DNA from: Klebsiella phage RCIP0009
Length of the DNA: 64,000 bases
Reading direction: 5' to 3' (one strand)
Sequence record: OR532803.1
The position numbers were made by a program, and so were the translations under genes. Under the pieces are notes generated by a model, which was not told the DNA's origin, made no database searches, and saw only the letters and a program-made list of their open reading frames with translations. This document shows, one piece after another, positions 58,769 through 59,557 of the stretch. Positions within the stretch are counted from its first letter, which is position 1. Each line of letters opens with the position of its first letter.

Positions 58769-59557
58769 ATGACTCACTTGAAAAAATTCAAAGAATTTCT
58801 GACCGAAGGTAAAACCCTCGCTCGTACCGTAGCACGTGGTCAACGCGCTAAAACTTCCGATAAACATTCAATCGGTTTTCTTCACTTCAAACATGGTTCT
58901 GATTTCGAAGTTTTAGCACCGGATTCTCACGATCTGGCATACTTCGGTAAAAACATTGTACGTTTGAAAGGTATGACTACTGGTAAAGTTCAAGCGGCTT
59001 ATGTCGATTGGGCTAAAGGTACTGTTTCTTTCTACAGTGGCAATCCGGATGATGATCTGGATTTCGACAAACCAGAAAAATTCAAAGCTGCTACTCTGTA
59101 TGAAGAGGCGGAAGAAAATCTGGATCTGTATAACCAGTTAGCAGAAGATTTCGAAATCGAGATCCCTATGGATGAAGCTCTGGTGAAAGGTAAAGTTTAC
59201 AAACTCCCAAGCAACGATATGCGTCTTCTGTACACTGGGCGTTCTAAAACTAAAGCAAGCGGTGAATATGCAGTGTTTACCGTAGTTGATGCTTCCGGCA
59301 AACCTCGCCTAGTATCTGGTAAAAAATTCACCCAAGAATATAAAGGCGATATGGTTTCTAAACTGGTTCTGGCTGAATCCGAAGATCTGAATGAAGCGGC
59401 TAAAGGCATTCGCGAAAAAGTTATTGCTGTGATGGTGAAACGCGGGTTTAACGAAAAAGATGCAGAAAAGATGGTTGACAAAAACCTGAAAGATGCTATG
59501 AAAGTTAGACCTGGTGCGACCCCTGGCAAACTTGCAGAAATAGTTAGCACCCTGTAA
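58769..59557 (+). CDS. internal-protein (IP)-like capsid-packaged protein candidate with N-terminal CTS-like leader
   Basis: MTHLKKFKEFLTE-G... resembles the T4 IPII/IPIII capsid-targeting sequence MKTYQEFIAE (a proposed L-x-E cleavage site after E13). 262-aa charged protein. Strong RBS, upstream promoters and a terminator. Opposite in orientation to the flanking genes 2 and 3. Confidence 0.5.
   Translation: MTHLKKFKEFLTEGKTLARTVARGQRAKTSDKHSIGFLHFKHGSDFEVLAPDSHDLAYFGKNIVRLKGMTTGKVQAAYVDWAKGTVSFYSGNPDDDLDFDKPEKFKAATLYEEAEENLDLYNQLAEDFEIEIPMDEALVKGKVYKLPSNDMRLLYTGRSKTKASGEYAVFTVVDASGKPRLVSGKKFTQEYKGDMVSKLVLAESEDLNEAAKGIREKVIAVMVKRGFNEKDAEKMVDKNLKDAMKVRPGATPGKLAEIVSTL

Follow-up and report, generated by a model that had tools for sequence, protein, structure and literature searches.

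The window analysed here is a stretch of 64,000 nucleotides in which an open reading frame of 262 codons plus a stop, the candidate internal (ejection) protein precursor discussed below and called the target, occupies positions 58769–59557 of the plus strand. The Klebsiella phage phi1_146007 (PP889462.1) is 100% identical to the source of the window over positions 57800–60500, and many further isolates of Slopekvirus, a T4-like group within the family Straboviridae, show 99.7–99.9% identity to the same region. In the 174-kb genome, window position 58001 is position 151311. The translation of the target opens with MTHLKKFKEFLTEG, and its frame can be extended upstream to give a TTG-started version from 58748. 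A Shine-Dalgarno sequence, AGGA, can be read at 58757–58760 on the plus strand, 8 nt 5' of the ATG. Although an earlier reading of this DNA, made from the letters and their open reading frames (the sequence-only reading), had described a strong ribosome binding site here, this motif at this distance makes a moderate and ordinary one.

The genes on both sides of the target lie on the minus strand, with gene 1 (dNMP kinase, 57174–57869) and gene 3 (57869–58399) to its left, and gene 2 (59594–60448), which is convergent with the target, and gene 4 (60464–60931) to its right. The overall minus-strand order is 57A, 1, 3 and then 2, 4, and genes 53 and 5 are on the plus strand. Because genes 1, 3, 2 and 4 are all found on the minus strand at these positions, the description of the locus as 4-2-[X]-3-1 with the target on the opposite strand was right, as was the claim that T4 has no gene between 2 and 3: in the T4 record, these two genes are separated by a 106-bp gap. 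A search of positions 58300–59700 gave no Rfam match.

Transcription signals and codon use

The spacer between positions 58420 and 58720 is GATC-rich and consists of a 115-bp tandem duplication of a back-to-back divergent pair of sigma-70 promoters. Two sigma-70-type (early) sites on the plus strand lie 146–290 nt upstream of the target, a distal one at 58479–58507 (TTGACC-17-TATAAT, 11/12, in the first copy of the duplication) and a proximal one at 58595–58623 (TTGAAT-17-TATAAT, 10/12, in the second copy), while the mirror halves of the duplicated unit carry two minus-strand sites (58550 to 58522 and 58665 to 58637) directed toward genes 3 and 1. The spacer is bracketed by a 42-nt inverted repeat (58446–58487 and 58680–58721) that abuts both late promoters, and at the far end lies that of gene 3, with its core CTAAATA at 58416–58422 on the minus strand. 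Promoter-like sites in the region number 10, compared to 3.8 ± 1.9 in shuffled sequences. Judging from this arrangement, the spacer is a symmetric divergent control region common to the target and to genes 3 and 1. The two consensus early promoters that the sequence-only reading had assigned to the target as its own are therefore present, but they are not private to it, as they are half of the divergent region. Two open reading frames annotated within the spacer in some GenBank records, of 61 aa (58419–58604, minus strand) and 37 aa, are probably not genes. Promoters of the GATCTATAAT type (TTGAT...GATCTATAAT) are also found in AT-rich divergent spacers upstream of uvsY and gp55 (PP889462.1, 11187–11300 and 81310–81498), and the occurrence of the same type in three spacers suggests that these sites form a distinct promoter class in the phage.

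A probable late (gp55-type) promoter, ACTAAATA, with a CTAAATA core, is located at 58721–58728 on the plus strand, 47 nt from the ATG of the target. CTAAATA occurs 16 times in the 174-kb genome, and about eight of these occurrences sit ~20–50 nt upstream of a gene start on the same strand, where about 0.4 would be expected by chance according to our own rough estimate of the target space. Six of the eight came from an automated scan (those of inh, the baseplate hub gene at 108784, gene 3, the target, gene 53 and gene 6), and two, those of t and of the divergent baseplate hub gene at 108714, were read by eye. At the position aligned to the late promoter of the target, both RB16 and GuL6 carry AATAAATA. 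Across the genome, the late form TATAAATA is seen upstream of gp19, gp20, gp22, hoc, gp34, gp36 and gp7, the form CATAAATA upstream of gp24 and of the endolysin gene, and the form nCTAAATA upstream of gene 3, gene 53, gene 6, t and the baseplate hub gene. Within the window, TATAAATA, the canonical late promoter of T4, shows no enrichment, and we dropped it as the sole late-promoter form, given that the genome also uses the other two. The target probably has a late promoter, which the sequence-only reading did not include and which a packaged protein would require. Regarding the inh-like gene of PP889462.1, its annotated start at 14171 is probably too far upstream, as a CTAAATA late core is found at 14210 and is followed at 14240 by an ATG from which a plausible N-terminus (MSIDYEK...) would be read. 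By our own reading of the T4 record, the T4 ip genes have early-type promoter-like sequences directly upstream.

Between the target and the convergent gene 2 lies a hairpin (59562–59589), flanked by A/T runs. On the plus strand it has a predicted free energy of -16.9 kcal/mol (z -3.5) and is followed by UUUUUG, and on the minus strand it has one of -16.4 kcal/mol (z -4.8) and is followed by UUUAUUUUU, so that folding on both strands bears out the bidirectional intrinsic terminator proposed for this site; a simple terminator scan missed it because the stem contains an internal loop. The codon adaptation index of the target, computed against six major virion genes, is 0.729, which ranks it 4 of 244 ORFs and makes it equal to gp18. 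Such codon adaptation fits a very abundant product, made in hundreds of copies.

The leader and its distribution

The first 13 residues of the target, MTH-LKKFKEFLTE (58769–58807, plus strand), make up a leader similar to the T4 capsid targeting sequence (CTS), as judged from the family alignment, the T4 internal-protein (IP) leaders, the functional CTS positions and a scan of the IMG/VR database. The prohead protease gp21 is predicted to cut after E13, in the context L11-T-E13, with G as the next residue. In the T4 record, the IPI leader reads MKTFKEFTST...ITE/A, and those of IPII and IPIII read MKTYQEFIAE/A (the slash marks the end of the leader); homologues of the target from RB16/RB43-type phages, Yersinia phage JC221, Pantoea phage Phynn and metagenomes have leaders of 10 residues such as MKSFKELLSE/S, MKTFKELITE/S and MKNFKEFLNE/V. 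The resulting family consensus, MK[STN]FKE[LF][LI]xE followed by S, V or G, is within the range of the IPI, IPII and IPIII tags. In T4, the first 10 residues of IPIII are enough for encapsidation, and CTS residues 4 and 7 mainly mediate targeting while 8 and 10 mediate processing (PMC9026906). At positions 4, 7, 8 and 10 the family members carry F, L/F, L/I and E, and the window protein, in the aligned register, has F (4), F (7), L (8) and E (10), hence it matches the four T4 functional positions. All aligned members of the family share F7, K8 and E13, while residues 14–34 vary among them.

Relative to RB16 and GuL6, the Slopekvirus sequences contain an 11-nt insertion that provided a new Shine-Dalgarno sequence and placed a new ATG three codons ahead of the ancestral one, which has turned into TTG; by moving the start, this insertion accounts for the 13 residues of the Slopekvirus leader. 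That length is as such no problem, because the T4 IPI leader has 19 residues. The residues MTH, however, precede the canonical register by three positions, and targeting by such an extended CTS is an assumption that counts against our interpretation. A true start at the TTG of position 58778, with an exact 10-residue CTS as the result, was judged unlikely because the Shine-Dalgarno sequence is 17 nt away from it.

Genes for both gp21 and gp22 are present in the phage, whose gp22 (MLKEQLLAE/A) and gp23 (GGFLAE/AE) keep the L-x-E motif at the cleavage sites equivalent to those of T4. When all possible starts in the 174-kb genome were searched with a CTS-type regular expression, the target was retrieved along with seven other candidate starts, and was matched twice, once from its ATG and once from the TTG that follows in frame three codons later. 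Only two of the other seven, 76040 (annotated clamp loader, in the gp62 position) and 46731, are annotated gene starts, and the MKxFKEF part is absent from both; a second gene start with an MKxFKEF leader was not found among the 244 ORFs of the genome.

IMG/VR was scanned for the pattern ATG AAA NNN TWY MAR GAR YTN HTN NNN GAR (in protein terms, M K x F/Y K/Q E L/F L/I/V/M/F x E), and the same codons in reverse order, counted over the whole collection, served as a composition-matched control. The leader pattern was found at no fewer than 120 loci, and the reversed pattern at 75. It stood at the start of an ORF in 119 of the 126 leader matches listed, compared to 7/75 for the control, and a T4 core gene was present within the ~5-kb flanks of 83 of the 120 leader loci listed, compared to 19/75. 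Near the leader loci listed these core genes were often virion genes (gp13–gp24), whereas those near control loci were nearly all nrd, gp61 or similar genes of replication and nucleotide metabolism, with virion genes at 1/75. Once the leader was removed, the cargos fell into at least 60 clusters unrelated by BLASTP among the leader matches listed. Recognisable T-even IPs, an IPIII homologue among them, are included in the leader-bearing proteins listed, and in T-even-like contigs the tagged genes lie downstream of gene 1, which is the position of T4 ipI. Taken together, the ORF-start bias, the T4-like context and the unrelated cargos indicate that the leader behaves as a portable N-terminal tag specific to T4-like phages, as expected of a CTS. 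Many of the contigs tagged with MK[x][FY][KQ]E[FL][ILM]xE (loci L009–L128) are environmental, with the tagged gene often beside gp15–gp17 or downstream of gene 1, and notable among the leader matches listed are a cluster of 33 members and several cargos that are rich in cysteine or very basic. Our literature search found no description of such a leader heading many unrelated families.

The resemblance of the target leader to the T4 capsid targeting sequence, on which the sequence-only reading was built, is borne out by first-residue alignment with the IP leaders, which matches both the consensus and the functional positions. The doubt raised at the time, that the likeness of so short a stretch could be coincidental, is disfavoured by the conservation of the leader next to variable residues and by its occurrence on many unrelated cargos. 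That the N-terminus of the target behaves as a T4-type capsid targeting sequence is well supported by these comparisons.

Cargo modules and conservation of the locus

In the AlphaFold model, the remainder of the protein consists of three modules joined by acidic linkers. D1 (residues 14–126; 58808–59146) has a basic N-terminal arm, a beta-sandwich and a C-terminal helix, and ends in a conserved L-A-E; D2 (residues 139–200; 59183–59368) is a small SH3/Tudor-like beta-barrel; and D3 (residues 213–262; 59405–59554), which is replaced by other modules in some relatives, is a three-helix bundle. On the plus strand these follow one another downstream of the leader. The modelled folds look like a PH-like sandwich, a Tudor/SH3-like barrel and a RuvA-domain-III-like helix bundle, in terms of resemblance rather than homology, and the modules look like binding modules rather than enzymes. 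We found no convincing match to the cargo among solved structures. The possibility that D1 is a metal enzyme, based on a cluster of H39, H42 and H54, was rejected: these histidines, conserved in the close relatives, are lost in distant members, and no catalytic site is seen for this reason. The mature protein is predicted to be ~27.6 kDa and near neutral, with basic modules (pI 9.2–10) and acidic linkers.

Searches of Pfam, NCBIfam, PADLOC and PDB sequences with the target protein returned nothing meaningful, and PHROGs placed the protein in phrog_7322 and its C-terminus in phrog_9411, both of them families of unknown function. An exhaustive HMM search of 1.84 billion representatives recovered only 13 proteins, all of them phage-type relatives or fragments. 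The cargo is, as had been stated, previously unassigned, and no housekeeping homologue, which the sequence-only reading had named as evidence that would speak against it, emerged from the family, sequence or structure searches. No similarity of the target to IPI or IPI* was detected in sequence or fold.

An L-x-E motif is found at each module boundary (LAE126, LAE203, LNE209). The mature part contains six L/I-x-E motifs, three of them in linkers, compared to 2.2 ± 1.3 in shuffled sequences (P about 0.014), and this enrichment, along with the boundary positions, raises the possibility of internal cleavage by gp21. The module composition varies among relatives: P0018 consists of leader and D1 with nothing more, the RB43 and GuL6 homologues are without D3, and others end in either of two different modules or in a pair of modules placed one after the other. 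D3 is also found as a free-standing protein of 53–77 aa without the tag, so its action does not need packaging. D1 without the leader is the C-terminal domain of the 304-aa gp193 of Aeromonas phage CC2 (L008:1856–2770), and a fold match to D1 is seen in a 118-aa protein of Vibrio phage nt-1 (BFVD R9TJK7).

The cargo is variable in that its C-terminal modules are swapped or missing among relatives, while D1 is conserved and the locus is fixed. The same position between genes 3 and 2, and the same orientation, are found in Slopekvirus, RB16 (Pseudotevenvirus) and the Buttiauxella phage GuL6. By tblastn, the target is present in 177 phage records, and is covered over at least 80% of its length in 163 of them. 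Because the locus is constant in relatives, and genes 3 and 2 are adjacent in other T4-like contigs, the insertion is old and lineage-specific. No mobility gene (endonuclease or transposase) adjoins the target. The sequence-only reading had seen here the signature of a mobile anti-defence cassette; the mobility it proposed is contradicted by the constant locus, the prevalence among phage records, the lack of a flanking mobility gene and the shared promoter region. On this genomic evidence, the target is a fixed resident of the phage lineage and not a current mobile cassette.

Two endonuclease genes deserve a separate comment. An HNH-type endonuclease ORF of 194 aa lies directly after gene 5 (window 63305–63889, plus strand), and PP889462.1, which is otherwise 99.8% identical, is without a 581-bp segment (window 63306–63886), so the ORF looks like an isolate-variable, free-standing homing-endonuclease insertion. 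In RB16, genes 2 and 4 flank a Seg-like GIY-YIG homing endonuclease (L129:4181–4870) that the window lacks, which makes the 4-2-3 neighbourhood a recurrent endonuclease landing site, not linked to the target itself.

A candidate head-internal protein and its alternatives

Based on these analyses, and by analogy with T4, our preferred interpretation is that the product of the target is the precursor form of a head-internal (ejection) protein comparable in kind to the T4 internal proteins, to which we assign a probability of roughly 0.68, and that it probably represents a new family of CTS-tagged internal proteins. The gene would be transcribed early from the two sigma-70-type promoters and late, during head assembly, from ACTAAATA, transcription would end at the bidirectional hairpin, and translation is expected to be efficient. 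The leader, in the register L4–E13 (xKxFKEFLxE), would dock the protein on the gp22 prohead scaffolding core, by analogy with the T4 IPIII CTS, and gp21 would cut after L-T-E13 to release the mature protein, which would remain with the packaged DNA and enter the cell at infection. Our best guess, based on the modelled folds, is that, as the DNA enters the cell, the protein would bind a target that belongs to the host or is associated with nucleic acid, and would thereby serve in DNA protection, counter-defence or takeover. More speculatively, gp21 might also cut the linkers at L-x-E after E126 and E203, yielding three small basic modules of about 12, 8.5 and 6.5 kDa. The extended proposal, in which the target is a one-tag polyprotein of swappable modules split by the prohead protease and the leader marks a large injected set in T4-like phages, is offered tentatively, with the odds against it. 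Some observations sit less comfortably with a head-internal protein. The genome has a single such gene, compared to several in T4; the T-even IP loci are hypervariable, but here the locus is fixed and D1 strongly conserved, a pattern that a role in assembly would fit as well; the late promoter is recognised at the motif level; and D3 also exists as a free, untagged protein. Our literature search found no virion proteomics or N-terminal sequencing of any homologue.

That assembly role is the substance of one alternative, which we consider unlikely: a prohead core or assembly protein, CTS-targeted and cleaved, that would be mainly structural (a scaffold accessory, or a head-size or DNA-condensation factor) rather than an injected effector, comparable to the morphogenetic side of T4 IPIII or to gp67 and gp68. 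Besides the high conservation of D1 and the presence of the gene at one locus in two genera, it is favoured by the very high codon adaptation, by the three basic modules set between acidic linkers, and by the finding that loss of IPIII slows head assembly in T4 (PMC9026906). However, C-terminal modules that are swapped or absent in close relatives would be unusual in a structural part, D3 and D1 are found in untagged proteins elsewhere, and a late protein with a purely structural role would have little use for two early promoters. Those same two good sigma-70 promoters would suit a cytoplasmic early/late protein that is never packaged, and whose leader is convergent or favoured for expression; the leader is also short, its three-residue extension breaks the exact CTS register, and packaging is deduced from sequence features. 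We nevertheless regard such a protein as improbable, since the leader is conserved and the residues next to it are not, and since the leader, unlike the composition-matched control, is almost exclusively N-terminal, bound to T4-like phages and joined to at least 60 unrelated cargos among the matches listed. The lack of another MKxFKEF gene start in the genome and the presence of a putative late promoter argue in the same direction.

The recently acquired, self-contained anti-defence cassette, acting as an IPI*-like inhibitor of type IV restriction, would account for the opposite orientation, the promoters and the terminator, and the shuffling of C-terminal modules would suggest an arms race; furthermore, an unknown modification of Slopekvirus DNA has been reported (PMC5219037). 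Nonetheless, we find this scenario very improbable, considering that locus and orientation are constant in Slopekvirus, RB16 and GuL6, that the gene is nearly universal by tblastn, that no mobility gene adjoins it, that its promoters belong to a shared control region, and that it resembles IPI in neither sequence nor fold and has no PADLOC match.

Proteins that enter the cell together with the phage DNA act ahead of all phage gene expression, and are therefore prime candidates for countering host defences. To our knowledge, almost no injected proteins have been identified outside the T-even phages. If the head-internal interpretation is correct, it would provide a defined injected protein for Slopekvirus and Pseudotevenvirus, present in nearly every isolate, and many of these phages are candidates for therapy against Klebsiella and Enterobacter. 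The leader search also suggests a simple sequence rule by which candidate head-packaged proteins of T4-like phages could be listed from genomes and metagenomes. Should the polyprotein proposal hold, relatives would change their injected repertoire by swapping modules on one tagged string, and the MKxFKEF[IL]xE leader would mark a large unexplored injected set, marine T4-like phages included, with at least 60 unrelated cargo families that could be mined directly for counter-defence and takeover factors.

Among known packaged proteins, the ejection proteins of phiKZ and SPN3US are processed by a T4-gp21-like prohead protease that removes propeptides after a short motif ending in Glu, and multi-site processing is common among such giant-phage proteins (PMC9026906; PMC5694885, PMC7411985); unlike the target, they belong to a different phage group, and no sequence relation to it was detected. 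T4 Alt, the packaged ADP-ribosyltransferase with N- and C-terminal propeptides, has documented processing at more than one site (PMC9026906). Like Alt, the candidate would be a larger head-packaged protein, processed by gp21, whose site of action is the host cell that it enters on ejection; unlike Alt, it has no ART fold or motif and no conserved catalytic residues. The T4 proteins IPI, IPII and IPIII, which are CTS-tagged, gp21-processed and ejected, differ from the target in several respects: its cargo is unrelated to theirs in sequence, it is larger (27.6 kDa in its predicted mature form) and multi-modular, it is single copy per genome and lies between genes 3 and 2 on the opposite strand, its D1 core is not hypervariable, and its packaging is a prediction. 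The target nonetheless shares with these internal proteins the length class and consensus of the leader with its (L/I)-x-E end, the gp21/gp22 machinery encoded by the phage, early-type promoters upstream, small basic modules, and a common neighbourhood, as T4 ipI lies three genes from gene 3.
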